A DNA stretch of 58,038 bases, taken from IMG/VR virus record IMGVR_UViG_3300027892_002924, positions 1-58,038 of that record; one strand, given 5' to 3'. Position numbers and translations under genes: made by a program. This DNA comes from a virus. Lineage: Duplodnaviria; Caudoviricetes. The notes beneath the pieces are model-generated. The model saw only the letters and a program-made list of their open reading frames with translations, ran no database searches and was not told the DNA's origin. Below, one piece after another: positions 5,282-36,941 of the stretch (its first letter is position 1; each line of letters starts with the position of its first letter).

Positions 5282-6871
5282 TTAGTGGAACATCAAAAAC
5301 TGCTTGGAGACGTCCAGTCTGCTGGCACCCAGATCCCCGTGCCCTGCCGGGAACACAACCACGTTCCACTTGGGCTTTGGACCCTCTGGAATACGATTCA
5401 TCTCATCGTAGGTGACAATGGTGCCCACATCCAGTTTGTAGATGTCTGCCAGCTTTTGTTTGAACTGATTCCAATCTGCTTCGCTCTTGACCTGTGTGCG
5501 GCCTTTTTCGTCCTTGACGTATTTGCCTTTGGCATCTGTCACAAACAGTTCGCGGAACATGTCTTTGGGCAAGGTCACAGCATCCTTCACGTGCCGGCCA
5601 GCATCACGTTGTACCTGTACTGTTTTAACTTCACGGCTCTTGGCGCCAGGACTGAACTGTCCAATGACATCATCTGGTTGGTCAGCTGATGCAATATCGC
5701 CCATCTTGGTGTAGAAATAGAACTTGCAATCTGGGTTCTGTGCCTTGACACCCATTACCAGGTCATAGTATTCTTTGGAGAAGAAGTCGCCGGCATCGTG
5801 TACACGAACCAAGAGTTTGATACCATTCTTGGTGGCCAGTGCTTTGGCCTTTTTAACTTCAGTGTCAAACATCTTCATGTAGTCTTCAGGATGATTGACC
5901 AAGAAGTTCAGTGCCTGTGCCGCACTCATTGAACTTGCAGGAAACATTACATATCCGCCCTTGCGAGCATAACAGTATAGTTGGCATTCGCCTGCACCCG
6001 GGCAGGTGGTAATTTCTACAAATTCGCTGGTCTCTTCATCCACCACTATGCCTGAAAGTGCTGGTAGCGTTAGATCATAGGTAATAGAGCCTTCTATTTT
6101 GCTCTTGGCCATTTTGGCATTTGTACCTAGTATAGCTCTTGGACGAGTGGTGATTTGACGGGCTAGGTCATCTAGGTCCCATTCTTCATTGCCATCGTTT
6201 TTGGTAATTGCTTTAACGTTGCTACCATGAATGATAGGTTTGAATCTGTCTTGTTTGGTTTTTGTACCTGTCTTGATTCTAGTCAAGTAATCCTGCATGT
6301 CTTGTCTGCTCCAGGACTTTTGTGGAGCATCTATTTTGATTGCTTCGTCGACTTCATCCACTGTGCCAAGATAGTGGTGATCATGTACTCGATAACCTTT
6401 ACGCTTGTGATGTGCAATCGCAGAATTGATTGCAGCTTCACGGCTGTCACTGGTAACACGCACTGATTTTTGGTATGTTTCTTTACGCTTTGACACCATT
6501 GGATGGTTAGGGTCAGTTACTGTGAGTCCAATGCGGTGTGTGACTGGTGCACCACCTTCAGCTGTGACCACAGGCTTGCCACTTTTTCCTGTGTTGGCAC
6601 CAAGTCCAGATACTCGGCCTTTGGTGTTGCCACGACCACCGGCTGAACCAATATGTGCCGAACCTTGCCAGCCTTCGCCTTTGCGTGGTTTAGCCGGTTT
6701 GAGTCGTTGTATTTCGCCACCACGTGCTAGGAATGCTGCCACAGCGTCATCGTCTTCCGCCATACCTTGCTCGTCGACTTCTTGCTCTGCACCGCTGGGT
6801 ACACTTGCAATGACCTTGACGTCAAATCCGCCTAGGTTGCGTGTGGTTTCTGTTAGTTCAGTATATCTCAT
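5282..6871 (-). CDS. modular protein with C-terminal GP88-like (radical-SAM-like Cys cluster) domain; putative internal head polyprotein
   Basis: Start MRYTELTE by ATGA overlap; LPA..TCPGAGECQLYCYARKG..RVHDAGDF..FYFYTK. Confidence 0.75.
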   Translation of the reverse strand: MRYTELTETTRNLGGFDVKVIASVPSGAEQEVDEQGMAEDDDAVAAFLARGGEIQRLKPAKPRKGEGWQGSAHIGSAGGRGNTKGRVSGLGANTGKSGKPVVTAEGGAPVTHRIGLTVTDPNHPMVSKRKETYQKSVRVTSDSREAAINSAIAHHKRKGYRVHDHHYLGTVDEVDEAIKIDAPQKSWSRQDMQDYLTRIKTGTKTKQDRFKPIIHGSNVKAITKNDGNEEWDLDDLARQITTRPRAILGTNAKMAKSKIEGSITYDLTLPALSGIVVDEETSEFVEITTCPGAGECQLYCYARKGGYVMFPASSMSAAQALNFLVNHPEDYMKMFDTEVKKAKALATKNGIKLLVRVHDAGDFFSKEYYDLVMGVKAQNPDCKFYFYTKMGDIASADQPDDVIGQFSPGAKSREVKTVQVQRDAGRHVKDAVTLPKDMFRELFVTDAKGKYVKDEKGRTQVKSEADWNQFKQKLADIYKLDVGTIVTYDEMNRIPEGPKPKWNVVVFPAGHGDLGASRLDVSKQFLMFH

Positions 6872-8928
6872 TTTTTTGCCTTTGCTCTGCCTGATTTCAT
6901 GTTGGCCATCCAGTGTGCTAATTGTCCTTTGCGGCCGCCCTGCTTGGCTACTTTTCTTAATGTACTTATGCTGGCCTTGGTTGGTACGCCGTGGCGCTTG
7001 CTGTCGCCTTTGTCCTGTGGGTTTCTGCCGTCGGCAAAGTTTTCCGCCATGCCTTGCTGCCCTAACAAAGATTGCACCCATGGAATGAACGTGTTTATGA
7101 TCCAGTCATTGTGCTGTTTGCTTTTGTCCAGTGTGCTAGAATCTGCCACGCGACCATTTATTGTCACAGGCTTGATACTGTTCACAGCATCCGTGATTTT
7201 CTTTTGCACAGCAGGATCAGCATCTTTGATCACAGTTTGCAAACGACCAGCGGCTTCACTTTGTCTACCCTGCATGGCCAACAATGCCACACGTTGCAAA
7301 TTGGCAAACACAGGATCACCTAGGTTGTTGAACATTTTGTTGATGCCATCGGCTTTGTTTTCCGCTACACCTTGCTTGGGAATCAACAATTCAGGCATGC
7401 GATACTCACTGACGTCCACTGGATACGGCTGTAGCGATGCTTTATATAATTCAGCATATTGTTCTTGTTCTTCAGGTGTCTTTGCTCTGTAAAACTTGTT
7501 GGCAATGGCCATATCGCCTACTAGAGTTCCTGGTGGAATGGAAATCTTTTTTGGCCCATAGTATTTTAATTTGTCAGAATCTTTGTTGGTCAAACTGTAA
7601 AAGGTTGATTCCCACTTATCCGGATGCAAGGCATATTGTGCAGTTGCTCTTTCTGGAACAAACTCTGCAAGTGTATCTGCGCCTGGATGAAATTTACCCA
7701 ACTTGGATAAACTTATAGCAGTATCATTACTTTCGCCTTCCGCCACATCTTGTTTTAATCTACTCAATTCGTAACGGACTATACTGCCAGTGTCGGCACG
7801 CAAGGCTCGATATCCCCAGGCACGTGAATAACGCTGTACCAGTCTATCGTACAACTTGGCACGGCTTTCAGGATTAAATTTCTCCACATTGTCTGCGTCC
7901 ATGTCAACTTCTTTGCTGGCCGAGAAACTTAGTTTCTGCGGTTTGTATTTTTTAATGTATTTTTGTATAGAATCCAGCACTGTGGCAAAGATTCTTTGAG
8001 CATCACCTTCACCCGTGACTTCTTGGCTGTTGTTTCTATAAAACTCAACTTGCACGACTTCTTCACCTTCGTCACCGTACTCCTGATTGAACATGATACT
8101 TAGATTTGACCCATCTGGCAGTTTGGCCAACATATCAATATCGCCATAATCACTTTTTTCTGATTTGGTCTTATAAGGTTGATCAAATGCCTCTTTCATT
8201 ATCCAGGTGTCGGGTATCTGTTTGTACTTGCTTACCCACATGTCGTGCAACTTTTGCCCGCTGATGCTGTGGCTCCTGGCGATGCGTGTCATCATCTTGT
8301 CAATGGTGTTGTAAACTTGATCATCGTCGGCTGACTGTAATTTGGCTTTGTGTGCTACCAATGCCGCACGTAATTCCTCCACAGCACCACCATCTTTGTC
8401 GTGATCCATGTTTTCGGCCAGTGTGGATTGATTGTAGGCTTGTTGTATCAACTTGAGTAACAAGGCGCCTAGCTCACCTTCAATGGTCATAGCACAGGCA
8501 TAAACTTGATCATCGGCGCCGTCGTCGCCTATTACTTCTTCTATGTAGTGCCAGAGTTCACTTTCTGCACGAATATTGGAAACAAGATCAGTAAGCGCAT
8601 CATTAAGTTCGTCTTCATCACTGATCACAGCAGGGTCGAGGCTCATGAGTATGTTACTGACTTGAGACATAACTTCTCGTGCAAGTAGGTGATTGGCCAG
8701 ATCAAAGATTTCTTGACTTCTTCTGAAAACGCTGGCATCAGCTCCTAGGTTGAAAGACAGTGTTTTAGCAAAAGGACCAGTATTGGCATCTAGATTACCC
8801 TGTATCATCTTGACCATGCTGGGTATGCGCTGTTGGAAAGTAACACGGCGTAGGTCTTTGCCCACGCGGTCACTTTGACCAAACATGTCTTCTTCGTCGT
8901 TCTCAACAATTACTTCTCTGATTTTCAT
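6868..8928 (-). CDS. modular putative internal head polyprotein
   Basis: Leader MKIREVIVE; unrelated segments joined by Q(G/D)(V/M)AE, TLAE and IMKE junctions. Confidence 0.75.
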   Translation of the reverse strand: MKIREVIVENDEEDMFGQSDRVGKDLRRVTFQQRIPSMVKMIQGNLDANTGPFAKTLSFNLGADASVFRRSQEIFDLANHLLAREVMSQVSNILMSLDPAVISDEDELNDALTDLVSNIRAESELWHYIEEVIGDDGADDQVYACAMTIEGELGALLLKLIQQAYNQSTLAENMDHDKDGGAVEELRAALVAHKAKLQSADDDQVYNTIDKMMTRIARSHSISGQKLHDMWVSKYKQIPDTWIMKEAFDQPYKTKSEKSDYGDIDMLAKLPDGSNLSIMFNQEYGDEGEEVVQVEFYRNNSQEVTGEGDAQRIFATVLDSIQKYIKKYKPQKLSFSASKEVDMDADNVEKFNPESRAKLYDRLVQRYSRAWGYRALRADTGSIVRYELSRLKQDVAEGESNDTAISLSKLGKFHPGADTLAEFVPERATAQYALHPDKWESTFYSLTNKDSDKLKYYGPKKISIPPGTLVGDMAIANKFYRAKTPEEQEQYAELYKASLQPYPVDVSEYRMPELLIPKQGVAENKADGINKMFNNLGDPVFANLQRVALLAMQGRQSEAAGRLQTVIKDADPAVQKKITDAVNSIKPVTINGRVADSSTLDKSKQHNDWIINTFIPWVQSLLGQQGMAENFADGRNPQDKGDSKRHGVPTKASISTLRKVAKQGGRKGQLAHWMANMKSGRAKAKK

Positions 8929-11054
8929 CGTAGTTGTTTCATTTCTGGTTGATCATGCTCTAGGCCAGGGCTTGCATCGTGACTATCTTCTTCTGGCCAG
9001 CAGTAGATGTATTGTCCTGCAAAGTCTTTTACCAGCATCCAGCGAATACCTGCGGCTGTGTACATGTGTGTTTGTGCCTTGTAGCCTGGCATCACTTGTT
9101 CAAAGTCAATGTCACCAGGACCACGATCATCGCCGTGCTTTTTAAGGAAGCCTGCCACTGCATTGACTTCTTGTGTGCTGTTAGGCCCTTGGCCACCTAG
9201 GTTAGCAACCACATGTATGCGCTTGGTTGGAGTCATGGTCAAGCTACCAAACAGGCTCTTGCCCAGCTGGCGAATCTGATCAGCCATGTTGCCCGGCAGG
9301 TTGGCCACTTGATGGAACTCTGGATTCTGTACGCCTGCGGCCTGCAGTGCTTGTCCTGCTACTGCTGGCAAGTTCTGTGTGTTTACATCCACAGAGGGTA
9401 GATTCTCGGGCGGCTCATCTGGATAGGCTTCTAGGTCTTTATCAAGCTCAATGTTTCTCATGCGGCCCAGCATGTCGCTCATGTCAGGTGTGCTGAGTCC
9501 TGAGGTCTTGCTCAAGGTGTCTTTCTGGCTGGCCTTGCGTAAATTTACTTTGGTATCATCGACGCCAGCTTTCTTTTTAAGATCGTCCAGTGGATCTGTG
9601 TGTGCCAGTGGCTGGTCTTGCGCCTGTTGGAAAGGAATATCAAACTTGAGATCAGGCTTGGTCTTGGTTGTGGTCTTGCGTGGACGCTCTGGTGGCTCTT
9701 CAAGTTCTGCATCAACTTCTTGTAACTTTTCCCATGAGTCATTTGTGCTGGTATCGCCCGATGGATCTGTGTTCCATGCATCACATACTTCTTCATATGC
9801 GCCAAATAGATCACCCATTTCATCATCATCAACACCATATTCGGCTTGCATTCGGTCATCATACTCGTCGAACCTTGAAGTAACTTGCAGTGCCTGTTTC
9901 AAAGTTAGCTTATGGCTCAAAGCAAATCCAGCTATGGCACGAAAATTATATCTGTTAGGATCCATACGGCTCCACTGGTATAGTGCCTGTGCTGTTTTTG
10001 GTGGTGTTTGAGTACCGCCAAACAGCTCATCATCTGACTCATCGTTGTTATCTGACTCGGTCACGTCCTGGTGTTGGTCCAACAGTGCGCTGATGCTGAT
10101 TCCAGTGTCTGCTTCTAGGTTGTCCTCAAAGTTTTCCCACCAGTCTGGCATATATTCATGCCAGGCTCTCAAGCCTGGCACCATGCCTTGTTTTTCAAAA
10201 ACATTGGCCACAAACCTCACGGCCTTGGCCTCTTCACGAATTTCTTCTAGGTCGTTTTCGTATTCTTGCCCATCCTCTGGGCTCAGTCCTGATATCTCTG
10301 CAGGATTATTGCGCATGGTGTTGGCAAAGTTCATGAGCCATTGTGCAATGCGACGATGTGCAGGATTGCCAAATAGTTCGTCATTATCTGACTCGCCTAG
10401 ATCCTCACCGTAAGCAAGTGCATAGAGATCAATGTCAAGTACCTCTTCGATTTGTTCTGCGGCATTTTCTCTAAGCATGGTATCTAGGCCTCTGAATGCA
10501 TCCAGGCCTGCTTCCATTCCTAGCTTAAATGCATTTGAGACTTCCTCAAATGAATTAGCATCGCTTTCTGTGCCGTCAGCGTATTCAGAATCTTGGTCGT
10601 CAGCACGTTGGTCGTCTGCTATGCCATACCATTCTCTAGCCATTTCAGCAAAAAATGTAGCCAGTTGCGTGGATTTGCGATCAGCAAATAGGTCATCGTC
10701 TGAATCATCTTCTTTGAGGCTCAGGAACTTTTTTATGTTCTGCATGCTAAGAGGTAATTTCTCAACACCGTCCTCATCGTAGAATAAGAAATCAAGATCT
10801 TCTTGTGTTGGCTCGTCGTCAAAGTATGTGAAGTCAGGAATAAAAGCAATCTGATTGTTTTTACGATCAACAATGACCAAGCCTTCTGTTCGATGCTCAC
10901 CGCCATAGCTAATGCCGCCGCCACCTATTTTATAACCTAGAGCACCTTCTTCTGGGAATTCAAATTTGTCTGCCAGCGTGGACACCAGATGATTGTCGCC
11001 AAATAAGTCACTGTCGCTCTGGTCATTTTCTCTAATAAATTCTGTACTTTTCAT
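8925..11054 (-). CDS. acidic modular putative internal head polyprotein
   Basis: Leader MKSTEFIRE; four [ILV]xE-acidic-LF(G/A) junctions. Confidence 0.75.
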   Translation of the reverse strand: MKSTEFIRENDQSDSDLFGDNHLVSTLADKFEFPEEGALGYKIGGGGISYGGEHRTEGLVIVDRKNNQIAFIPDFTYFDDEPTQEDLDFLFYDEDGVEKLPLSMQNIKKFLSLKEDDSDDDLFADRKSTQLATFFAEMAREWYGIADDQRADDQDSEYADGTESDANSFEEVSNAFKLGMEAGLDAFRGLDTMLRENAAEQIEEVLDIDLYALAYGEDLGESDNDELFGNPAHRRIAQWLMNFANTMRNNPAEISGLSPEDGQEYENDLEEIREEAKAVRFVANVFEKQGMVPGLRAWHEYMPDWWENFEDNLEADTGISISALLDQHQDVTESDNNDESDDELFGGTQTPPKTAQALYQWSRMDPNRYNFRAIAGFALSHKLTLKQALQVTSRFDEYDDRMQAEYGVDDDEMGDLFGAYEEVCDAWNTDPSGDTSTNDSWEKLQEVDAELEEPPERPRKTTTKTKPDLKFDIPFQQAQDQPLAHTDPLDDLKKKAGVDDTKVNLRKASQKDTLSKTSGLSTPDMSDMLGRMRNIELDKDLEAYPDEPPENLPSVDVNTQNLPAVAGQALQAAGVQNPEFHQVANLPGNMADQIRQLGKSLFGSLTMTPTKRIHVVANLGGQGPNSTQEVNAVAGFLKKHGDDRGPGDIDFEQVMPGYKAQTHMYTAAGIRWMLVKDFAGQYIYCWPEEDSHDASPGLEHDQPEMKQLR

Positions 11055-13165
11055 TATCTGTCACCCATGAATGTTTGTATTTCTTTTTGGAACCAATCTT
11101 GTTGTGCTACGTCTGGATCATTGCCAAACATATCCCACATCTCTACCATGTCCTGATGCCATTCACCGGAGTCAATAAGTGTTCCAAAATCATTTAGTCC
11201 ACTGAATCCTCCTGCATATTCGCGCAGAATAGCATCAACTACTATCGCTTTACCAAATGGTGTGCTGGTTGACCTACACACTAGATCAAATAATCTATTG
11301 GCATCTGGTTCCTCGCCTTGGGTAAGTTTTTCATATTCTGCTTTAATACGAGGATTGTTATAGGCTTGTTCTAGTTTGGCCAACATCTGCTTACCAAATT
11401 TATAGATCATGCGCTGTGCGGCAGAACCACTTACCCCAAACATCTCATCATCAGATTCTTCTTCGCCTAGTCGACTAGATCGATCCAGATGCAATACTAT
11501 GTCATCACCTTGTCCGTCTTCGGCGCCTGTGAGTTTTAGAACTCGCCAGTTAACCGCGCCACCGTCCTCGAGGTAGTGATTTATTATATCAACATCTTGC
11601 TCTGGATGATCACCATAAGAAAATCCAAGTGCCTGCAATTCGTCTTCGTCATACTCGTTGAAGAAATCGCCAAATCGTATGGTAGGTGATGCAAACAAGT
11701 CATCGTCGTCATTGCTTTCGTCGATCGGGTCATCAGTTATTGGAAAATGCGCTACAGGCACTCCACTGTCGTCGTTGTTCCAACGCTGTTTGTACACCGT
11801 GATGAAATCGTCTGTGCCGTACCCAGCTTCCGAGTACCCTGGAATTTGTTCTTTGGCATGTGCTATTGCTTCGCGTATGTCACCAAACATGCCAAGTACT
11901 TCGTTGTCGGGTGCCGAGACTACAAATACCTTTTGTTCACCATCACCAAACAAATCTTCGTCTGACTCTGCGTTTTCGTTAACGGTATCGTCGTGGTCAG
12001 CAACATCCACGCCCATGGCATCTTCGATGTAGTTGCGTAGATCATAGCGTATGTCGGTGTTGCTTAGTTTGTACTTGCTCCATACATGTATGCCGTGCAG
12101 GAAGCTTCGATTGAATCCTGCAATCACTGCCTCTACGAATTCTACTTCAAACTGTGCCAGTGGGCGTCGACTGCCTGTTTGTCTACGGCGCAGCCATAGT
12201 TCAAGATCCTGTGCAATTACTTTAGTGTCTGGTCTGGTGCTGGACCCAAACATGTCGTCATCGCTTTCGTCAATTGGATCATCGGTTATTGGAAACTCAG
12301 CTACAGGCACTCCGCTTTCCTCACCCCGATTGTGTTTATATACACTGATGAAATCGTCATCACCCCAGCCATCTTCTAGGTATGATGGAATTTGTTTTTT
12401 GGCATATGCTATTGCTTGGCGTATGTCACTGAACGTGTTAAGTATTTCGTCGTCGGGTGCCAAGACTACAAATACCTTTTCTCCGCCGGCGCCAAACAGT
12501 TCATCGTCTGACTCATCATTTTCAGTTACTTTATTGGCTATGAGATCATATACAGCATCGTTGATACCATCCAGCATTGCATCTTGCTTGTCTTTGCCTA
12601 TTGACTTCCAGTAATGAAGCAAGGGTTCCCCTCCTGGGGTCTTGCCCAGTGCAAATCCAACCATGAAAGGACTGGTGATCAGTCTTGCAGATTTGTCTGA
12701 ACGAACAATGGCTCTTGCAATAGATTGTGTTAGAGTAGCGGCACTAGGCGCAGAGCCAAACAGTTCATCGTCGTTTTCTTCTCGCAACAGATCAGAATAG
12801 GTAGGAGGCACAAGAACACTAAGCCAACCTGAGCCTGTGAACTTACACTCAAACCCTTGCCTCTCTAGTTCTGCTTTTATTTCCTGTGCCACTGGAAGAG
12901 GTTTTGGTGCACGATCCCCTGGGCCCTTTACATAGTCACCAAACCAGAAAGTTGCTCTGCCACGAGATGCACTTTTAGGTATGCTACTCACACGAGTTTT
13001 TATTCCAAACCCTGTCTTGGCCAACTCACGCACCCGGCTCACTGTGCGTAGATACGGATCTTCTATCTGTTTGATTGCCTGCTTGGCGCCGGTGGCCAGA
13101 TTACCCGGCGCACTAAACATGTCGTCATCGTTTTTAATGGCTTCTATTATCTCACGATAACGCAT
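11054..13165 (-). CDS. acidic modular putative internal head polyprotein with duplicated domain
   Basis: Start reset to MRYREIIE; seven [ILV]xE-acidic-(L/M)F(G/A/S) junctions. Confidence 0.75.
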   Translation of the reverse strand: MRYREIIEAIKNDDDMFSAPGNLATGAKQAIKQIEDPYLRTVSRVRELAKTGFGIKTRVSSIPKSASRGRATFWFGDYVKGPGDRAPKPLPVAQEIKAELERQGFECKFTGSGWLSVLVPPTYSDLLREENDDELFGSAPSAATLTQSIARAIVRSDKSARLITSPFMVGFALGKTPGGEPLLHYWKSIGKDKQDAMLDGINDAVYDLIANKVTENDESDDELFGAGGEKVFVVLAPDDEILNTFSDIRQAIAYAKKQIPSYLEDGWGDDDFISVYKHNRGEESGVPVAEFPITDDPIDESDDDMFGSSTRPDTKVIAQDLELWLRRRQTGSRRPLAQFEVEFVEAVIAGFNRSFLHGIHVWSKYKLSNTDIRYDLRNYIEDAMGVDVADHDDTVNENAESDEDLFGDGEQKVFVVSAPDNEVLGMFGDIREAIAHAKEQIPGYSEAGYGTDDFITVYKQRWNNDDSGVPVAHFPITDDPIDESNDDDDLFASPTIRFGDFFNEYDEDELQALGFSYGDHPEQDVDIINHYLEDGGAVNWRVLKLTGAEDGQGDDIVLHLDRSSRLGEEESDDEMFGVSGSAAQRMIYKFGKQMLAKLEQAYNNPRIKAEYEKLTQGEEPDANRLFDLVCRSTSTPFGKAIVVDAILREYAGGFSGLNDFGTLIDSGEWHQDMVEMWDMFGNDPDVAQQDWFQKEIQTFMGDR

Positions 13166-14450
13166 GACCCTGCTCCTGTAGTTTTGCTGTGTACAGCTTG
13201 GGTATCTGGCGCATGAGGAATCTAAACAGCGGGTCACGCATCACAAGATCCTGTATGTGTGGGATCGCATCTTTATGCATTCTTGATCTTGAATTTGTCA
13301 AGGCCGCTACCAATGCTTGTCCTGACTTGCTGGTTTCAACAGGTATATGCAGTGATTTGTCAGCACTGAGGATAGACTCAATCTTGTCTTCACTGCGTTC
13401 TAGTCCTGGCTCTGCAATTATCTGGCTCCAGATCCCACCTTTTGCATTCATAGCCGTTATACACTGTGCTAGATAATCTCTCATGCCCGCGGCAATTGAT
13501 TCTTGTTCAGACTGTGCTAGATCAATACCATATTCTTTCAAGCTCTTGAAACCAAACCCAATGATACGATCAGCATACTGGTCAACCATTGCTGTTGTTT
13601 GTTTTATAACTGTAGGAGTAAACTCTTTGACAATGCTCTTGTACTCTTCGCCTATTAGTGGCGCTACTGAATATTTCTCTGCAGGTAGTTGTAGGATCTT
13701 GGTCAGCTCAGGAAATCGTTTTACCAATTTGGCAATACCGCCTGCACCAATCTGCTGATCTTGTTCGTCCATGAACTGTTTGGTTTCAAAGTGGAACTGA
13801 TACTTTTCTCCAGGATACGCCTGCTGACGTGGAATAATAACATACAGTGGGCGATTGCCTTTGGTGTAGTAGTTAAACAGGTTGTTGTTCTTGCCTGCGG
13901 TACACCAACGAGTACCTTGCCCATAGTAGCAGGCGGCCTGCTCGTCCTGCGGGATAGTAACAATCAGATTGCTGTCACGATAGAGTTCTTGGGCGTTTTG
14001 TTTGACTTCTGGCTTGGCTTCTTCCTCTTCAGGGTATTCGTCTACCACATCATAAAAAGATTCTAGATCTCGATATCGGTTGAAGTCATTGCGTGGAGGC
14101 TGTATCTTTTTCTTGCGCTTGAGACGATCAAACTTGACCAGATAGTCAGCCAGTGTAGATACCACGTCTTCCATCTTGCTCAGTCCATTGCTATACATCT
14201 TGGCAATGCTCTGGCTGTATTCTTTGTTGGGTGTTGGGTCACCTTTTTCAATATACTGTAGTATCATATCTATCAACTGTTGTGGCTGTGTCTTGGCCAG
14301 TTCTTTAACAGTTGCGCCTTGTGGTAGTTCAGCTTGTATTTGCATGAGCAGCCAACGGTCTTGTCCCATTGCGGCAATCAGCTTGTTACCATAGGCATCT
14401 GCTGTTTTGTTGCGATCGTACTCTAGCAGTACTAATTGGTTGTATCTCAT
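13152..14450 (-). CDS. hypothetical protein with PcfJ-like domain
   Basis: ACYYGQGTRWCTAG..LFNYY..PLYVII..KYQFH; leader MRYNQLVLLE. Confidence 0.65.
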   Translation of the reverse strand: MRYNQLVLLEYDRNKTADAYGNKLIAAMGQDRWLLMQIQAELPQGATVKELAKTQPQQLIDMILQYIEKGDPTPNKEYSQSIAKMYSNGLSKMEDVVSTLADYLVKFDRLKRKKKIQPPRNDFNRYRDLESFYDVVDEYPEEEEAKPEVKQNAQELYRDSNLIVTIPQDEQAACYYGQGTRWCTAGKNNNLFNYYTKGNRPLYVIIPRQQAYPGEKYQFHFETKQFMDEQDQQIGAGGIAKLVKRFPELTKILQLPAEKYSVAPLIGEEYKSIVKEFTPTVIKQTTAMVDQYADRIIGFGFKSLKEYGIDLAQSEQESIAAGMRDYLAQCITAMNAKGGIWSQIIAEPGLERSEDKIESILSADKSLHIPVETSKSGQALVAALTNSRSRMHKDAIPHIQDLVMRDPLFRFLMRQIPKLYTAKLQEQGHALS

Positions 14451-16126
14451 TCAATGATCTCCGGATGTTCTTTGCCGTATAATTTCATCAGATACCCGGC
14501 TTCGGCATCTGCATCACGTTCTAGCGGGCTACCAGGAGGATTGTGTCCTTTGATACGACCTTCACTGCCCTGTTTGCGATGACGCAGTTCGTGTGCTATC
14601 GTGCGCAGTATGTCGATTAGATTGCGATTGCCAGTGTACACCCACATGGTATTGGTGTCTGCATTGTACCATCCGGTATGATGCATGTCTTCACTGTCTT
14701 TTTTGTTGGAAAGTTCTATATTAGGGCGTGGCGCATCAATGCGTTGTTTTTTGTATACCCAGTCGACAAAATGTTCAATGCGTTTCATTTGATCTGATTG
14801 ATCTATGTCTTCAGTGATTTCTTTGTCAGGCTGCACAGCAACAGGCATGCTTCGGTCCTGACTCTTCAACTGCTGTGGTTCATGCTCACGCTCTTTGCGT
14901 ATGATCTCAAAGCCACGCTTGAGTCCTTGTACCACAACATCCAGGCTGTCTTCGTCTGCCTGATACTTGATACCAATACCACCGGCTGCTTCCCACTTGG
15001 AGATGTTGTCGCCGCGGTCATCAATCAAGAAGTTAGGCGTGCCATCTGGTTGTGTGGCATACTTGGGTTTGTTGGGAGTGATAACAATGTCCTTGGGCTG
15101 TGGGCTTAGATGTTCGTTAATCCATACTGTCTTTTGTACTTCGCTGTTTTTAAAATCGCCACGCAGTGGACTAGAGCAGATGTTGTAGTGGCCAAACAGT
15201 TTGACCACCATGCCAACTAACGAGTCTGCTGTGGGAAACTTTGGTAGTCGCGCAAAGAAGTCTGTGCCTATCATCATGTTCAGTGTAGGATCTGTTTTGG
15301 CAGGAGGAATGTCTCTGTAGCTGCCGTTTTCGACTCCTGCCAGCTTGGCATACTCTGTAAAGAAGTCTGCCAGTACCCCATCCATATCTAGATACATCTC
15401 TGGTTTGTATTCTGTACGTGCGGCTTCACGCAGGCCTAGTCCTTGGTCTTCAAGATTGCCCATGTGCTTGCGCAGTTTTTCTAAACTGCCATCTGCACGA
15501 AGTATTTTGAATGCAAGATTCTCAGGGGAGAACTCTCCGCCCGACTCCAGTCCTGTTTTTCTCATGCTCTTGATAGAGGCCCACAACTGAGCCACACTGT
15601 CGTGATTGTCACTGACGATGGCCTGGTTGATACGATGTTTCACACTACGATACTTTTCTTGTACTTCAATGTCATCTACCTGCGCACGTTGGCGCTTGGG
15701 CTGGCTGATCCAGCGATCATGTTGTACGCTGTAGATACCCATGCTGTGGTGTGCATCTTCTGCGTCCTGTACATAGAGTTCGACATCGTACCCGCGGATA
15801 CGGATATTGTGTTGATCGTTGTACTGATACTTCTTGGCTGTGAATAATTCTTTTAGTTCTGCTTCGTGCTCATCTGGAATCATTACCACAAGATGTAGAT
15901 CAATGTCTGAATTGGGTGTGTAGGTATAGGCTGCATTACTGCCCGAAATTGTGATGTCCACAAGATCAAACATGTCAATGCCCAGGAAGTCTTTGAAGTG
16001 ACGAGCAATGCGCAGTAGAGTTTTACGAACTCGCGGCTGTAGCTTGTCCCCTTTCCATAGTGCAGGGTTCAGCTCATCGTGAAAATTCACAGCAAGATTT
16101 AGTTCTTCAAACTCGTTTAGGCGCAT
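14447..16126 (-). CDS. fusion of Pol-beta-type nucleotidyltransferase, HAD 5'(3')-nucleotidase and zincin-like domain
   Basis: GSNA..SDIDLH..DVELY; YLDMDGVLADF..LIDDR; AHELRH..ERDAD. Confidence 0.8.
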   Translation of the reverse strand: MRLNEFEELNLAVNFHDELNPALWKGDKLQPRVRKTLLRIARHFKDFLGIDMFDLVDITISGSNAAYTYTPNSDIDLHLVVMIPDEHEAELKELFTAKKYQYNDQHNIRIRGYDVELYVQDAEDAHHSMGIYSVQHDRWISQPKRQRAQVDDIEVQEKYRSVKHRINQAIVSDNHDSVAQLWASIKSMRKTGLESGGEFSPENLAFKILRADGSLEKLRKHMGNLEDQGLGLREAARTEYKPEMYLDMDGVLADFFTEYAKLAGVENGSYRDIPPAKTDPTLNMMIGTDFFARLPKFPTADSLVGMVVKLFGHYNICSSPLRGDFKNSEVQKTVWINEHLSPQPKDIVITPNKPKYATQPDGTPNFLIDDRGDNISKWEAAGGIGIKYQADEDSLDVVVQGLKRGFEIIRKEREHEPQQLKSQDRSMPVAVQPDKEITEDIDQSDQMKRIEHFVDWVYKKQRIDAPRPNIELSNKKDSEDMHHTGWYNADTNTMWVYTGNRNLIDILRTIAHELRHRKQGSEGRIKGHNPPGSPLERDADAEAGYLMKLYGKEHPEIIE

Positions 16127-16134
16127 AATATCTT

Positions 16135-16164
16135 AAAAAAATAGGAGACTATCAGTCTCCTATT
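16135..16164 (-). terminator. Rho-independent terminator after clpP
   Basis: AATAGGAGAC-TGATA-GTCTCCTATT then T run. Confidence 0.75.
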
Positions 16165-16188: not shown

Positions 16189-16779
16189 TTATCTTGCTGA
16201 CAGTACCTGGTCTGCAAGGCCGTATGCAACTGCCTCTTCTGCACTCATGAAGAAATCACGTTCCATGTCGGCTGCTAACTCGGCGTATGTACGACCCGCG
16301 GTGTTGTGTTTTACATAGATATCTGTGAGATACTGCTTCATTTTAAGGATTTCCCGCACCTGGATTTCCATGTCAGTAGCTTGGCCACCAGCGCCACCGC
16401 TGGGTTGATGGATCATGTGTCTTGCGTGTGGTAATATCAGACGTTTACCGGCTGCGCCTGCTTGTGCTAACAAACTGCCCATGGAGCAGGCCTGTCCCAT
16501 TACAATGGTGCTTACGTCAGGTTTGATAAACTGCATGGTGTCGTAGATTGCCATTCCTGCTGTTACACTTCCACCTGGACTGTTGATATAGAACAAAATA
16601 TCGGCTTCTGGATTTTCACTTTCCAAGAACAAAAACTGTGCGACCAACAAGCTGGCACTGTGCTCACTTACTTCGTTATCCAGTAGGATGATACGGTCTT
16701 TGAGCAAACGACTGTAGATGTCATAGGCACGTTCACCATTGGAAGTTTTTTCTAATACGGTAGGTACAAAATTTGGCAT
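16189..16779 (-). CDS. clpP: ATP-dependent Clp protease proteolytic subunit
   Basis: [29 protein letters not shown] (Ser), MIHQP (His), MERD (Asp). Confidence 0.97.
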
Positions 16780-17689: not shown

Positions 17690-18196
17690 TTAGCACTTGT
17701 TAAAATCTTGATGTTTGAACCATCGGCGCATTCCGTGGCTGGTTTTTAAGTCCATTCCATAATAGGCCATGCGTTCGCGCCAGGCAAAGAAGCTAGGTCC
17801 ATGTGCGCCTGAATTTTCAGATACATTAAAACCCGTGTTATCAAATCGTTCTATGTCCCATTGATACTGATGCACCATTTCGTGTGCTAGGGTAGTACAG
17901 AACCACTGTGGGCAGAACCATTTGTCCATCAAGGATATTGAGCACCAGGTTCCTGGTTTGCTGTGACTACCACGTTTTTGCAAGTCACCCATCCACTGGC
18001 AAACACCCCAGGTTTTTCTAAGTGTGCCTAGATGTATGTCAGGCAGGGTCAGCACATTGTGAAATATATGCTTATTAAGACTGTGATAAAGACGGGTAGT
18101 TTCTTCTAGAGACGGGCGATAAGGCAATCGTCTTTGCACCGACACACGCGGCAATGGTGCAGTCATATACTGAGTAATCAAACTAGGTCTAGCCAT
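17690..18196 (-). CDS. SprT-like metalloprotease
   Basis: TLAHEMVHQYQ and GAHGPSF motifs. Confidence 0.8.
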   Translation of the reverse strand: MARPSLITQYMTAPLPRVSVQRRLPYRPSLEETTRLYHSLNKHIFHNVLTLPDIHLGTLRKTWGVCQWMGDLQKRGSHSKPGTWCSISLMDKWFCPQWFCTTLAHEMVHQYQWDIERFDNTGFNVSENSGAHGPSFFAWRERMAYYGMDLKTSHGMRRWFKHQDFNKC

Positions 18197-29826: not shown

Positions 29827-30579
29827 TCAGTTTTGGGCTCTGCGTTGACCTTTTAATCCAGCATTTTTTAATATGCTAGACAATTCTGTAGATTCATCGA
29901 GATTAATTGGTTTCCCACCAATGGTGACTCGAATTACCCTATCTGCTGCCCGAGCAGGAAGTTCTTTTTTTATATCAGCTATTGCTTGTTCGATCTTGGA
30001 TCGAAGTTGTCCGGCAAGAACTTGTCGTTGATCAAACGATATACTGGATTGTACATCATATGGATTTTTTGGATTCACTGCTGATATAACCACTTCGTTA
30101 GCATCTCTGTCAGCTTTACCTTTTTTCCACTCAGCATCTTTTTCCTGTTGGGCCCGTGCCGCGGCATTGCCTTCTGGAGAATTGTCCCAGCGTTCCATAT
30201 CCTTTTTATATTCAGCATAGATATCGTTAGCAACATTAAATCCTTGATCTTCAAGATATCCAGTTATGTCATCTTGAATAAAGTCATCAATGCTCATGTA
30301 TGCTTCTCTACCGGCTTCCATGCCTTTGCTCAAAAATGCTTTTGCTATTTGATCTATGTCAGCGGCGTCGCTGTCATTTTGTGATGTTGAGTCAGATCTA
30401 ACATCAACACCATCGGCACTGATGTCTGAGTTGCCGTCAGCATATAAATCTGCAAATTTTTGTATTGCTACACCGTAGGCGTATGGGCTGTTGCTGTCAT
30501 CACCGCCCGGGGCAAATTCATTTAAATCCCTTGCAAAATTTTGCTCTGCTTCATTAACGTATTCTTTGAAAGTTTTCAT
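29827..30579 (-). CDS. putative internal head protein
   Basis: Leader MKTFKEYVNE resembles T4 capsid targeting sequence MKTYQEFIAE; shares a domain with the polyproteins. Confidence 0.7.
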   Translation of the reverse strand: MKTFKEYVNEAEQNFARDLNEFAPGGDDSNSPYAYGVAIQKFADLYADGNSDISADGVDVRSDSTSQNDSDAADIDQIAKAFLSKGMEAGREAYMSIDDFIQDDITGYLEDQGFNVANDIYAEYKKDMERWDNSPEGNAAARAQQEKDAEWKKGKADRDANEVVISAVNPKNPYDVQSSISFDQRQVLAGQLRSKIEQAIADIKKELPARAADRVIRVTIGGKPINLDESTELSSILKNAGLKGQRRAQN

Positions 30580-33202: not shown

Positions 33203-33444
33203 CAGTATAGTTTTTTAGGCAATGCTTCTGCTTCGAGTTTTTTCTGCCAACGTCGACGAGCTTGGCTTTTTGCTTTTTTACGAGCAGCAGTGGGTTTTTC
33301 GTAAAACTCTCGTTCACGTAGTTCTTGAAGCAGACCGCTGTCTTGGACTTTCTTTTTAAACTTGCGCAGAGCTTTGTCAACTTGGTCGTTGACTACAAAA
33401 ACTCTGTTGCCAGGCGCTATTGGTCTGTTTTTATCTTTGATCAT
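33202..33444 (-). CDS. rpsU: ribosomal protein bS21
   Basis: VDKALRKFKKKV..G.L.ELREREFYEKPT..RKK. Confidence 0.92.
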   Translation of the reverse strand: MIKDKNRPIAPGNRVFVVNDQVDKALRKFKKKVQDSGLLQELREREFYEKPTAARKKAKSQARRRWQKKLEAEALPKKLY

Positions 33445-34646
33445 TTAATATATTCCGGTTCCTGTTGGTTTGTAATTACTTCGCTATTGATGCGTATTTT
33501 ACTTATACCTTGACGCTTTAGTGTATGTAAAGAATACATGGTTTTCATCAACACTTGGTCAATGATGCTTTTGAGTCCACGAGCGCCAATATCTCGCTCT
33601 ACTGCGGTTTGAGCTATTGCTAATATTGCTGTGTCTTCAAATTCTAATTCTATGTCATCCGTAGAAAAATACCATTTGGTTTGTTCTATTAGATTGTTTT
33701 TGGGTTCTACCAGTATCCGAGCCAGATCTTCTAGCGTCAGAGGATTGATTTTAACTGTGACAGGAAATCTTCCAACAAACTCTGGTATCATTCCAAATTT
33801 TATAAAATCTTCTGGCAAGGTAGTTTTTGTTTTATGGTCAGCTGATCTAGCTTGTGTTGTGAAACCCATACCAGAATAATTTTGTCTTTCGTCGAGAATT
33901 TTTTCCAGCCCTTCAAAACTGCCACCAGCAATGAACAAGATGTTGCTGGTATCAATTTCTACTGTGTCCAGTGCAGGATGCTTCTTGGTAGTGTTTACAC
34001 TAACAGTGCATTTTGTGCCTTCTACTAATTTGAGCAGGGCTTGTTGTACACCTTCGCCGCCAACATCTCGATGCAGGCTTGCGCTCTCGCTCTTGCGACC
34101 AATCTTGTCTATTTCATCAATAAAGATAATTCCTTGTTGGCATTTTTCAACATCATTATCGGCAGCACTTAACAGTCTTGAAATTACACTTTCAACATCA
34201 TCACCGACATAGCCTGCTTGTGTGAGGGTGGTAGCATCTGCAATCACAAATGGCACATTAAGATATCGTGCTACAGTTTTTGCCAGCAGTGTTTTACCAG
34301 ATCCTGTTGTGCCGTGAAATAACAAATTACTTTTTTCTATTTCAATACTGGGTTGAAAGAACACTCGCTTGTAATGATTTACCACTGCAACAGATAGTGC
34401 AGTCTTTGCGTCCTCTTGGCCAATCACATATTCATCAAGGTACTTTTTTATTTTAACAGGGTCAAGAGATTTGGCTATTTTTTTATCTGACTGTAGATTC
34501 TTAATACGTTCTTTGCTTAAGATGTCTCCGCAGAACTCAATGCATTCATTACAGATGCCTGCATCGTTGGCCACAATCAGCTTGTCTACTTCGTTGCGAT
34601 TTTTGCCGCAGAAGTTACACAGCACGTGAGTGATATTGTCTGTCAT
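33441..34646 (-). CDS. clpX: ClpX ATPase
   Basis: C4 zinc domain, Walker A GTTGSGKT, GYVG pore loop, IFIDEIDK, GEGVQQALLK, MGF loop, GARGL. Confidence 0.95.
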   Translation of the reverse strand: MTDNITHVLCNFCGKNRNEVDKLIVANDAGICNECIEFCGDILSKERIKNLQSDKKIAKSLDPVKIKKYLDEYVIGQEDAKTALSVAVVNHYKRVFFQPSIEIEKSNLLFHGTTGSGKTLLAKTVARYLNVPFVIADATTLTQAGYVGDDVESVISRLLSAADNDVEKCQQGIIFIDEIDKIGRKSESASLHRDVGGEGVQQALLKLVEGTKCTVSVNTTKKHPALDTVEIDTSNILFIAGGSFEGLEKILDERQNYSGMGFTTQARSADHKTKTTLPEDFIKFGMIPEFVGRFPVTVKINPLTLEDLARILVEPKNNLIEQTKWYFSTDDIELEFEDTAILAIAQTAVERDIGARGLKSIIDQVLMKTMYSLHTLKRQGISKIRINSEVITNQQEPEYIK

Positions 34647-34990
34647 TGATTTTTAAAGTATTCGATTAGGTCTGCTATTTGTCTGGTGTTGCCTAGATAA
34701 CGATGCGGGCCATAGTACCAGGTTCTTGAATCTTTGATCAGTTTGTTTTTTGTTGGTGTACAAGCACTGTCTTGAGTATTGATAATAATCACATGAGCTA
34801 GACCAATCGCAGACTCTAGCCATTCAGGCTCCATCATGACATCTGTGTACACATAGATGTTATAGGTTTTTGCAGTGTTTTGCAACCATAGAGACAGTGT
34901 ATCAACATCGTTCCAGTCTGGGTCAATAATCAGTATCTGCGTGGTCTCATCGTTGATGAAATCGGGTGGTGTGATTATGTTACTATGCAT
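34643..34990 (-). CDS. conserved hypothetical protein
   Basis: IITPPD motif; coupled ORF. Confidence 0.75.
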   Translation of the reverse strand: MHSNIITPPDFINDETTQILIIDPDWNDVDTLSLWLQNTAKTYNIYVYTDVMMEPEWLESAIGLAHVIIINTQDSACTPTKNKLIKDSRTWYYGPHRYLGNTRQIADLIEYFKNQ

Positions 34991-36941
34991 CTGGCGGGCT
35001 TTTTAGATAATCAGCCACCTGTTGTCTTTCGGTGTCATTGAGATCGTCTGGATCATATTCTCCACGTTGTAGTTTTTCAACTAACAATTTTATATATGCC
35101 TGATCATAGGCATAACGATCGGTTTGTGCTTTGTCAGTTTCGATCCACTTCACACCATTCCATTTGTACAAACGGCTTGGCAGGTAGTCTACTCTCAGAA
35201 ACATATCGCCCTTTTTCTGATTCTTGGGAAACTCAGTACCAAAACTTGCCTGTGTGTCTGGTACTGGATCACTGTCGGGACGAACTGCCATTTCCGGAAA
35301 TAGTGTATTAAAGGCCTGCAGGTTATAGGACTTGTCCTGATATCTAACTGTGTTGTCGCGAGTTATCACTGGAGGCGAAAGCTCTTGTTCGAGAGGGCCA
35401 TCTACTGTGGCTTGAACGGTGTTTAGCGCATTCAGCTCTTGAATTTTATCATGCGCAAGTTGTATTGCTTCACGCAGGTCTTGTTCAAGTTGCGTGATCC
35501 ATTCTTGTTGTTGTGTGGCCTGTGTTTCAAGTTCAGTTACACGGCCACGTAGTATGTCTGTTTCTTCTTCACTTACAGTGAGCATGCTTTCGCTGGCATA
35601 TAGTCCGGTCACGGTCTGCTCTAGTTCTTCAGCAATTGATGCTCTTGCGGCATGAGCTTGATCAAGTTCTCGCTGTACACTGTCACGTTCGGCTGTAATA
35701 CCAATCAATGCCTCTATCAAATCGTCTCGTTCTTTTTCTACTGCTTTGATTTCCTGCGCCTGTGCCGCAATGGTATCAAGGTCAGGATCTTCTGATTCAA
35801 TTTCTGCTAACTTGGCATTTGCCTCTTCTACTGTGCGAGCATCTTGATCTGCATCTAGTCCACGTGCAATCAGCTGGCCACGCATGAAGAATTCTTCAAG
35901 TTCTTTTTGTTCCTGTGCTCTGCGCTGTTCTTCTAGTGCGCCCAGTATGTTGTCAAACACATCACATTCTTTGTTAGGACAGCATGGTCCAACGCCAGGA
36001 GCATCAATGATCTGCGTGTTGCATTTGGGACAGTGTGCAGGTTCTTCCACGACAGGCTCAGTAGGGGTGGCCTCAGCAGTGACTTTCTCAACTGTGGGTT
36101 CAGCGTCCTCTACCGCAGGAGTGACCACTGCTGGCTTTTCTTCTACAGGCCGATCTTCTTCATCATGTATCCAACCGCCTTTGCCTTGACGAGCCCATTC
36201 CAGTTGCTTGTTGGCGGCAAGAATAAGAGTGAGTGCCAGTGGGTCAAACACCACAACAATCAGGATGATCACCCAACGCACAGCGGCTTCCAGCATGTTC
36301 TGGCTGGCCGCATCTCCGTAGATTAGTGCCGCAATGTATTTGATTGGTCCTACTTCAGCTTCAATCTTGCGGAACTCTGCCCGTAGTGGTGCGGCCTCCG
36401 CACTAATGGCAGTGATAGTTTTCTGTTCGGCCTGGATCTCAGACTGAAGTCTGACACGTTCTTTTTGCTGTGAGCGACGGATTTGTACAGCCTTATCCGC
36501 ACCTTTTTCATCCGTGCTTCGACCCATAACCTGGTCCACTGCCTCATCCAGTTGTTTAAGCGCCCGACGGTTCGCATCAATATTGTCCTTGGAGATTTTG
36601 ATTTTTTCGTCGAAGATGGCAACCCGGGCCATGGCGTCACCTGACACTAGACTTTGGTCACCGTGGGCCTTTGCAAGGAAGCCATAGATGCCCATGCTGG
36701 TCAGTAGCATGAGGAATATGATAGCAGGAATGAGATATAGTTTGAATGCAATACCGACCCGACGCCAGTTGTTGTGAAGCCAAACTGTGGCAACAATTTT
36801 ACCAGCTTCCAGCGCACCACCCATGATCATCACAGGCACAACAGCAGCCGCAAAGATAGCAGTGAGACCCACAACTGAGTACCAGGCGGCAATTGCCGAA
36901 ATCATCACAGAGATGAGTAGGATGAAGTAGCCAAATATCAT
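34983..36941 (-). CDS. membrane protein with long coiled coils
   Basis: N-terminal TMs, EVGPIKYIA, VVFDPLA, CPKC..CC..C insert, C-terminal FG..FP..GDMFLRVDYLP. Confidence 0.8.
   Translation of the reverse strand: MIFGYFILLISVMISAIAAWYSVVGLTAIFAAAVVPVMIMGGALEAGKIVATVWLHNNWRRVGIAFKLYLIPAIIFLMLLTSMGIYGFLAKAHGDQSLVSGDAMARVAIFDEKIKISKDNIDANRRALKQLDEAVDQVMGRSTDEKGADKAVQIRRSQQKERVRLQSEIQAEQKTITAISAEAAPLRAEFRKIEAEVGPIKYIAALIYGDAASQNMLEAAVRWVIILIVVVFDPLALTLILAANKQLEWARQGKGGWIHDEEDRPVEEKPAVVTPAVEDAEPTVEKVTAEATPTEPVVEEPAHCPKCNTQIIDAPGVGPCCPNKECDVFDNILGALEEQRRAQEQKELEEFFMRGQLIARGLDADQDARTVEEANAKLAEIESEDPDLDTIAAQAQEIKAVEKERDDLIEALIGITAERDSVQRELDQAHAARASIAEELEQTVTGLYASESMLTVSEEETDILRGRVTELETQATQQQEWITQLEQDLREAIQLAHDKIQELNALNTVQATVDGPLEQELSPPVITRDNTVRYQDKSYNLQAFNTLFPEMAVRPDSDPVPDTQASFGTEFPKNQKKGDMFLRVDYLPSRLYKWNGVKWIETDKAQTDRYAYDQAYIKLLVEKLQRGEYDPDDLNDTERQQVADYLKSPPDA

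Follow-up and report, generated by a model that had tools for sequence, protein, structure and literature searches.

Can a phage send a whole string of proteins into its head under a single N-terminal address and cut the string apart there? The question is raised by a stretch of viral DNA, the IMG/VR record IMGVR_UViG_3300027892_002924 (Duplodnaviria; Caudoviricetes), which was analysed over its full 58,038 bases and is called the window here. Its minus strand carries, at 5282–16126, an operon of six genes (g1–g6) with short T4-like leaders. An earlier note, made from the DNA letters, had read these as capsid-targeted polyproteins, cut in the head into roughly 25 proteins that are delivered at infection for host takeover or anti-defence. 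Sequence grammar, structural models, comparative tests and a protease in related genomes point to T4-style targeting and cutting. With moderate confidence we read the six genes as those of a T4-superfamily jumbo phage, encoding capsid-targeted polyproteins that are packaged and then cut after Glu by the prohead protease. The earlier interpretation is supported in part, by leaders and junction grammar, by the modules' independence and by the protease of relatives; its host roles are read from the domain types of relatives.

CheckV completeness of the window is 16%, which implies a genome of ~360 kb. Besides the operon, genes of the window include those for ribonucleotide reductase, UvdE endonuclease, ClpX, ClpP and a protein resembling tail fibres. 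Syntenic to the window is G001, a 354,959-bp record that is complete and has direct terminal repeats, with ~30 kb of colinear alignments at ~66–81% nucleotide identity. Within the operon, g1, g2 and g6 are colinear between window and G001 at 62–69% identity, and the middle genes are rearranged module by module.

Leaders

The six open reading frames (ORFs) fill the region with successive overlaps of 4, 14, 1, 4 and 4 nt. Coordinates, overlaps and leader sequences (Table 1) confirm the six coupled genes as first listed, including the start of g6 at Met 6871 in place of a longer ORF from 7081, a choice with which the G001 homologue agrees.

All six leaders have the form M-(K/R)-...-hydrophobic-x-E over 8–10 residues. 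The capsid targeting sequence (CTS) of T4 is MKTYQEFIAE (PMC8442874). T4 CTSs are 10–19 residues long, and their processing is set by residues 8 and 10, Asp at 10 being blocking (PMC9026906); gp21-type proteases cut C-terminal to Glu (PMC5694885). Each of the six leaders has the hydrophobic P3 and Glu P1 of a T4-type propeptide, at a length slightly under the T4 range. The claimed likeness to the T4 CTS thus holds in format, and the g4 leader MKSTEFIRE resembles the T4 sequence itself.

The leaders are conserved among relatives. Full-length g3 relatives nearly all start with MRYxE(I/L)(I/L)E, followed at residues 11–16 by an acidic-LFG element (see below), and 95 of 120 g5 relatives have [LIVM]xE inside their first 12 residues. 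Many relatives of the g4 C-terminal domain are stand-alone proteins of ~250 aa, with N-termini of the form MKxxxxLxEA in which the Glu is at least 90% conserved. Leader-bearing genes are clustered: they make up 13.4% (218/1627) of genes around g4-domain homologues, vs 3.6% and 2.9% genome-wide in two complete relatives. In more distant phages leaders are mostly on separate genes, and VAE-junction polyproteins also occur.

Two types of junction

Inside the chains, hydrophobic-x-Glu recurs in two settings. The acidic-LFG type fits the pattern [DEN][DENSQ][DE][LMIV]F[GSAQ], which turns up 12 times when the window is translated in all six frames: seven in g3, four in g4, one in g5 and none elsewhere. 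Composition-preserving shuffles (2000 per protein) gave means of only 0.027 (g3), 0.031 (g4) and 0.007 (g5), with a maximum of 2. For all 12 copies an [LIVMF]-x-E ends 2–8 residues upstream; each g3 module is preceded by hydrophobic-x-Glu, an acidic run and LFG. In the second type, found in g5 and g6, (Q)G(V/M)AE is followed by N, G or D. The hydrophobic-x-Glu junctions of the earlier description thus stand, far above chance; the acidic-LFG element and the (Q)G(V/M)AE type were absent from it. Inspection of g2 for internal junctions gave none that was clear. By our own count, the earlier estimate of ~25 products is reasonable.

The same grammar holds across relatives. In 213 distinct internal contexts the acidic-LFG element has D (93%), D (82%), D/E, L/M (95%), F (100%) and G/A/S (97%). 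Among 175 distinct internal LFG junctions the last hydrophobic residue is followed by x-E in 147, by x-D in 12 and otherwise in 16; by eye, most exceptions have a hydrophobic-x-E slightly further upstream. Glu dominates at this one position while Asp dominates 3–4 residues before the Phe, which indicates that Glu is fixed there. The junctions therefore fit the T4 processing determinants, with a hydrophobic P3, Glu at P1 and Glu strongly favoured over Asp, in support of the cut sites proposed earlier.

The element is largely a property of this operon. Of 18 strict matches in G001 (355 kb), 17 belong to four neighbouring genes of the syntenic operon, and a more distant second phage of 354 kb has no strict match. 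Only 5 of 120 g5 relatives have the element, and junctions persist in most of those without it. Motif codons differ synonymously between copies, which argues for selection on the peptide, not the DNA; a role for the motif as a DNA-level recombination signal was rejected on this ground. Separately, in P0203, a 269-aa g3 relative, most of one module seems to have been lost, an internal APDDE being joined to the ...MFG of the next motif. This join suggests that deletion or recombination may use the motif region.

Modules as separate, shuffled units

If the chains are cut at these junctions, the stretches between them should be independent. We modelled the whole g3 and g4 chains in AlphaFold with alignments of relatives. 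The mean predicted local distance difference test score (pLDDT) was 65.5 for g3 and 72.2 for g4, with predicted template modelling scores of 0.25 and 0.42. All seven g3 motifs lie wholly inside segments of pLDDT <50, which make up 20% of the protein; two of the four g4 motifs do so wholly and two partly. The stretches between motifs reach pLDDT ~70–95. Almost every listed structural match is confined to a single module, but in g4 there are three rows (ranks 1, 7 and 24; root-mean-square deviation 29–47 A) that cross junctions. With low-confidence linkers at the motifs and matches mostly within modules, the chains look like separate modules rather than single continuous folds running across junctions, as the earlier note had expected.

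Evolution divides the chains at the same places. For module cutting we pooled 198 proteins, comprising 195 metagenomic relatives, g3–g5 of the window and four G001 genes, less one duplicate. Of these, 77 bear the motif, and cutting them at it gave 307 modules with a median of 102 aa (quartiles 81 and 135) in 74 families. Module order differs among the 77 proteins, and one family has up to 11 different right-hand neighbours. BLAST endpoints fall at most 10 aa from a motif in 52% of 4705 internal cases, vs 13% of random positions. The chains have between one module (P0207, 135 aa) and ten (P0029, 1006 aa). With seven modules in g3, four or five in g4 and up to ten in relatives, they lie within the 2–15 unrelated domains by which polyvalent proteins are recognised.

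A leader-swap comparison located the boundary more finely. We sought the 14-mers directly behind N-terminal leaders inside other proteins, excluding LFG types as low-complexity. Of 130 distinct internal occurrences, 84 stood directly behind hydrophobic-x-E, against a background of 1.7%; several of the rest were offset by 1–2 residues. The AFDQPY module, for instance, stands behind IMKE within g5 and directly behind the leader MKIREVIVE in a relative. No other comparison speaks as strongly for a functional N-terminus at the residue after Glu. In both structure models and evolution, then, the independence of the modules is borne out.

A ~35-aa Cys module, KWSxKYKKSINCxxPKGFSQRAHCAGRKK, was also noted in P0049, P0052, P0055–P0057 and P0059 and in G001 at 34476–36722. 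It follows the leader MKSKDFLNE in some proteins and is internal, behind IEINE, in others.

The prohead protease

The earlier note proposed a gp21-like protease elsewhere in the genome. The window itself did not yield one, and the syntenic genome and other relatives did. G001 has a T4-like head module holding a portal, a 303-aa very acidic protein starting MNKYEKLIE, a 212-aa Peptidase_S77 (96 bits) and a 366-aa coiled-coil protein with 26 [LIV]xE sites; its major capsid protein has LLE-7, LLE-19, ILE-34 and LAE-42. Of 12 related large records, 9 have Peptidase_S77, among them all five that are at least 90% complete; the three misses are 39–72% complete. ClpP was also considered as the head protease and rejected, G001 having a dedicated S77 protease in its head module.

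Weighing the readings

On the favoured reading, the 8–10-residue T4-type CTS would bring a whole chain into the prohead scaffolding core. A gp21-type protease, encoded outside the 58-kb fragment, would there cut after Glu at exposed hydrophobic-x-Glu sites, removing the leader and freeing ~20–25 small folded modules; in g3–g5 the predicted products would each start with an acidic (S/N)DD(D/E)(L/M)FG tag. The modules would be retained in the head and reach the host together with the DNA. To judge from the enzyme types of relatives, their likely targets in takeover or counter-defence would be nucleotides, nucleic acids and proteins of the host.

Several points weigh against this. Cleavage, packaging and injection are steps that we infer. 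We found no head genes and no prohead protease in the window, which is only 16% of a genome. In G001 the operon, at ~27–41 kb, lies ~200 kb from the head module (233–239 kb), and head genes are within 10 kb in just 1 of 80 related loci. The acidic-LFG element is absent from G001 head proteins, so it is not a general determinant of the protease, and the model leaves the tag unexplained. The g3 and g4 proteins are very acidic (isoelectric point, pI, 4.3–4.4), unlike T4 internal proteins, which are highly basic (PMC8442874). Low pLDDT at the junctions may be due in part to alignments of shuffled relatives. Three other proteases lie in or beside the operon: ClpP, a SprT-like protein and the HExxH module of g1. 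The consensus TATAAATA, which we take to be that of T4-type late promoters, matched twice in the window vs 2.0 expected, and neither match was near the operon.

Some of these points would be expected if the chains were uncleaved cytoplasmic multidomain proteins, with acidic-LFG stretches serving as flexible linkers and repeated binding motifs for one phage or host hub, for example a clamp-, SSB-partner- or ClpP-type pocket, and with the leader serving translation, turnover or another purpose. LFG is under peptide-level selection, is confined to the operon, is dispensable for head proteins and lies in disordered segments, as binding motifs usually do; the operon is also distant from the head genes. 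LFG may also resemble the peptides of clamp binders, the tails of SSB and of the ribosomal stalk, and the IGF loops of ClpX, though we make no claim of such a likeness. We consider this account unlikely. It leaves unexplained why Glu over Asp is fixed two residues past the last hydrophobic, why non-LFG junctions share only hydrophobic-x-E, and why module boundaries fall exactly after Glu both behind leaders and inside chains; the leaders, moreover, match the T4 CTS format. Cutting outside the head by another protease (the g1 HExxH module, the SprT-like protein or ClpP/ClpX), with acidic-LFG perhaps as its recognition site, strikes us as improbable. Embedded metallopeptidases have been proposed to process polyvalent proteins (PMC5512222), and g1 ends in an HExxH module, whose match to the DUF6782 putative metallopeptidase is sub-threshold (E 0.0049, 16.6 bits, cut-off 27). 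SprT-like and ClpP genes stand directly upstream; at least four contigs repeat the order SprT-like, ClpP, g1, and in 17 of 80 related loci ClpP is no more than 10 kb from the g4-type domain. ClpX, too, is encoded in the window. A terminator-like hairpin, however, parts ClpP from g1. ClpXP degrades its substrates processively instead of cutting at defined sites. Both junction types share hydrophobic-x-E, the specificity of T4 gp21, and LFG is missing from most junction-bearing relatives.

The chains might instead be packaged and cleaved as the favoured reading has it, with products that are mainly structural: an acidic internal mass or scaffold remnant aiding assembly, DNA packing or ejection. 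Giant phages with large internal protein masses have been reported (PMC5694885, PMC9026906), and the g3 and g4 modules are small, acidic (pI 4.1–5.6 for 10 of 11) and of no recognisable enzyme fold. Conflict-driven cargo better fits how quickly modules are shuffled and replaced, and how many enzyme domains g1 and the relatives contain; we regard a mainly structural role as quite improbable. A tentative and rather doubtful extension of the packaged, cleaved chain is that the junction is a plug-and-play cassette, by which one leader would carry any flanked domains and each would be cut free with an acidic N-terminal address tag. This tag might direct threading or ejection as the product passes the tail, or dock it on a single host hub. 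With such a cassette, huge phages could reshuffle their effectors and deliver dozens together from a single translation product, and ClpP/ClpX nearby might remove whatever is left unpackaged in the producing cell.

Relatives and cargo

The families are large. We found 50 metagenomic relatives of g3 of like length and 27 shorter ones, covering 7–100% of g3; 488 representative relatives of the g4 C-terminal domain at E ≤1e-3; and 1201 g5 relatives within the length range searched. Single-protein IMG/VR scans with g3 and g4 gave no relatives. In 50,697 GenBank phage records neither megablast with the region nor tblastn with g3 or the g4 C-terminal domain gave a match; the sole GenBank phage match was the first module of g1, in 107 records.

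T4-like cyanophages and other large phages have that g1 module as a protein by itself. Its homologue in Synechococcus phage S-CRM01, g125 (L100 1468–2196), has a 14-residue N-terminal extension that ends in LISE and abuts the conserved domain; it may thus be a leader-bearing, packaged protein in T4-like cyanophages too. Over its full length the g2 protein shares 62% identity with its syntenic counterpart in G001, and 22 of 80 loci holding the g4 C-terminal domain have a g2-like gene no more than 10 kb away. In g4 itself that widespread domain is the final ~260 aa of the tail; elsewhere it forms stand-alone ~250-aa proteins with their own leader.

No Pfam or PHROG match was found for g3 or g4. 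Foldseek of g4 against PDB gave no match at E ≤0.001, and neither did the comparison of g3 with BFVD. The best VIA-align Z scores, 7.8 (g4) and 6.5 (g3), were to generic helical or small alpha/beta structures, under the tool's noise guide, and a protein atlas search gave no usable match. No module is put forward as a new fold. In BFVD g4 had one homologue only, A0A6J5SZT4 of an uncultured Caudovirales phage (1182 aa; E 6.8e-36, 36% identity), which is annotated with a glycoside hydrolase family 19 (GH19) catalytic domain. A cell-wall hydrolase in the chain of a g4 relative would fit delivery at infection.

Domains recognised in g5 relatives are Pol-beta nucleotidyltransferase, GNAT, Zeta/AAA_33 kinase, ParB, deaminase, NUDIX, NT5C and DUF6934, in many combinations. 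Set against the conflict-related repertoire of polyvalent proteins, the window gave only nucleotidyltransferase-like, NT5C, GP88 and DUF6934 matches. Roles in host takeover or anti-defence, read solely from the domain types of relatives, are probable. In g6, the peptide DDDAVAAFLARGGEIQRL, directly after the QGMAE junction, has a sub-threshold SutA-like match (Table 1), which hints that one g6 module could target host RNA polymerase through an RNA-polymerase-binding peptide.

Comparison with known systems

The likeness to the T4 internal proteins rests on leader and junction format. IPI, IPII, IPIII and Alt likewise have a short N-terminal leader ending in hydrophobic-x-Glu, with Glu over Asp at P1. 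T4 and the operon also share a gp21-family protease (here in related genomes), clustering of leader-bearing genes in islands, and hypervariable cargo behind a conserved leader (PMC3012670, PMC9026906). T4 internal proteins, however, are single, small and basic and are cut once (PMC8442874), whereas here one leader precedes up to ten modules with repeated internal sites. Also unlike T4, many products here are acidic, and a conserved acidic-LFG tag stands behind each LFG-type site. No homology in sequence to T4 proteins came to light, though no search aimed at it was made.

Polyvalent proteins (Iyer et al. 2017, PMC5512222) likewise have many unrelated domains per chain, with co-delivery alongside DNA and proteolytic release proposed. 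They share nucleotidyltransferase, GNAT, ParB and kinase/toxin-like domains with g5 relatives. Their processing is ascribed to embedded zincin-like metallopeptidases (PMC5512222), whereas the operon has prohead-protease junction grammar and a T4-type leader. The modules here are also much smaller and are split by a stereotyped linker cassette.

In the giant phages phiKZ, 201phi2-1 and SPN3US, the gp21-type protease (gp175/gp245) has diverged and cleaves behind Glu in many head proteins, some at several sites, and much protein is ejected (PMC5694885, PMC9026906). The phiKZ-group motif is (S/A/G)-x-E, and multiple cuts mostly take off long propeptides (PMC5694885). The sections of these two accounts (PMC5694885, PMC9026906) drawn on here describe no bead-on-a-string shuffled cargo and no acidic-LFG tag. 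The polyproteins that eukaryotic RNA viruses make follow the same logic of one product cut at stereotyped linkers, an analogy made by Iyer et al. (PMC5512222); their proteins, proteases and biology are unrelated, and the cutting proposed here would be inside a DNA phage prohead.

In the open-access full-text literature we found no account of a leader-tagged polyprotein system or of the acidic-LFG motif. We rate as new relative to print the combination of T4-style leader and cut sites with polyvalent-protein-like chains. If the favoured reading is true, a large uncultured group of 260–520-kb phages extends T4 protein smuggling inside the head, one leader and a stereotyped cleavable linker delivering strings of small proteins and enzymes. 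From metagenomes, a simple sequence rule would then predict which proteins huge phages package and inject; there would be a rich catalogue of candidate takeover and counter-defence modules, and phage-based protein delivery would gain natural leaders and linkers. The families concerned are large (488 clusters for the g4 domain, more than 1200 g5 relatives), yet g3 and the g4 C-terminal domain are without a GenBank phage match. The acidic-LFG tag is a short new motif, sharply defined and open to bench testing.

Feature map and neighbouring genes

Positions of the features are given in Table 1. The operon picture of the earlier note stands; features that it did not mention are the neighbouring ClpP and SprT-like genes, the HExxH module of g1 and the ClpP/g1 terminator. 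The terminator-like hairpin between ClpP and g1 suggests that the six genes are probably their own transcription unit; apart from it, sigma-70 and terminator scans of the window were at background level. ClpP and SprT-like peptidases are mentioned for some jumbo phage groups (PMC7824862).

Table 1. Operon genes, modules, junctions and neighbouring features in the window. Residue numbers are those of the protein named.
Feature	Window position	Strand	Description
g1	14447..16126	-	559 aa; leader MRLNEFEE; three-part fusion by Pfam/PHROG boundaries
g1 module 1			residues ~1-232; nucleotidyltransferase-like; phrog_36119 7e-50
g1 module 2			residues ~240-395; NT5C deoxyribonucleotidase; 6e-5, under Pfam cut-off
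g1 C-terminal module			HExxH; phrog_2643 5e-17
g1 candidate junctions			LRE-234 and ITE-439
g2	13152..14450	-	432 aa; leader MRYNQLVLLE; PHROG matches phrog_28193, phrog_17056
g3	11054..13165	-	703 aa, pI 4.4; leader MRYREIIE and seven modules of 76-126 aa, one module type present twice
g3 junction 1 (leader)	13112..13150	-	IIE-8, DDDMFS 13-18
g3 junction 2	12755..12787	-	LRE-129, DDELFG 132-137
g3 junction 3	12491..12529	-	VTE-215, DDELFG 220-225
g3 junction 4	12245..12274	-	IDE-300, DDDMFG 302-307
g3 junction 5	11945..11983	-	VNE-397, DEDLFG 402-407
g3 junction 6	11690..11725	-	IDE-483, DDDLFA 487-492
g3 junction 7	11435..11470	-	LGE-568, DDEMFG 572-577
g4	8925..11054	-	709 aa, pI 4.3; leader MKSTEFIRE, three small modules, 363-aa tail
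g4 junction 1 (leader)	10998..11036	-	IRE-9, DSDLFG 14-19
g4 junction 2	10683..10718	-	LKE-115, DDDLFA 119-124
g4 junction 3	10368..10400	-	LGE-221, NDELFG 224-229
g4 junction 4	10017..10064	-	VTE-333, DDELFG 341-346
g5	6868..8928	-	686 aa; leader MKIREVIVE; one acidic-LFG junction, then (Q)G(V/M)AE-type junctions
g5 junction 1 (leader)	8878..8910	-	IVE-9, EEDMFG 12-17
g5 junction LAE-172	8413..8421	-	then NMDHD; in relatives the same module is directly behind a leader (MRYKEIIE, NMDHSKDG)
g5 junction MKE-246	8191..8199	-	then AFDQPY; in relatives the same module is directly behind a leader (MKIREVIVE, AFDQPYKTK)
g5 junction VAE-397	7738..7746	-	then GESND; boundary offset by a few residues
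g5 junction VAE-523	7360..7368	-	then NKADG; putative, from the recurrent QGVAE pattern
g5 junction MAE-629	7042..7050	-	then NFADG; in G001 the downstream part is a separate gene with its own leader
g6	5282..6871	-	529 aa, pI 8.8; leader MRYTELTE; QGMAE-39 junction
g6 SutA-RBD-like peptide DDDAVAAFLARGGEIQRL	6700-6750		residues 41-57; 4e-5, 23 bits vs cut-off 29, sub-threshold
g6 GP88 domain			residues 250-437; PF17338, 7e-24
Hairpin, 11 pairs, then T-run	16140..16164	-	between ClpP and g1; terminator-like
ClpP (neighbour)	16189..16779	-	PF00574, 3.7e-78, residues 14-194, full-length profile match
SprT-like	17690-18196
ClpX	33441-34646		zinc finger and AAA_2

Two further ORFs of the window have leader-like starts. 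A 250-aa acidic ORF at 29827–30579 (minus strand) starts MKTFKEYVNEAE, in the leader style of the stand-alone g4-domain proteins, to which it has no detectable homology. A 379-aa ORF at 56468–57607 (minus strand) starts with the CTS-like MKIRDIITE and has no homology to the polyprotein families; a KWDG stretch in it may resemble the ligase adenylation motif. In G001, a 365-aa ORF at 343763–344860 has a leader similar to MKIRDIITE.

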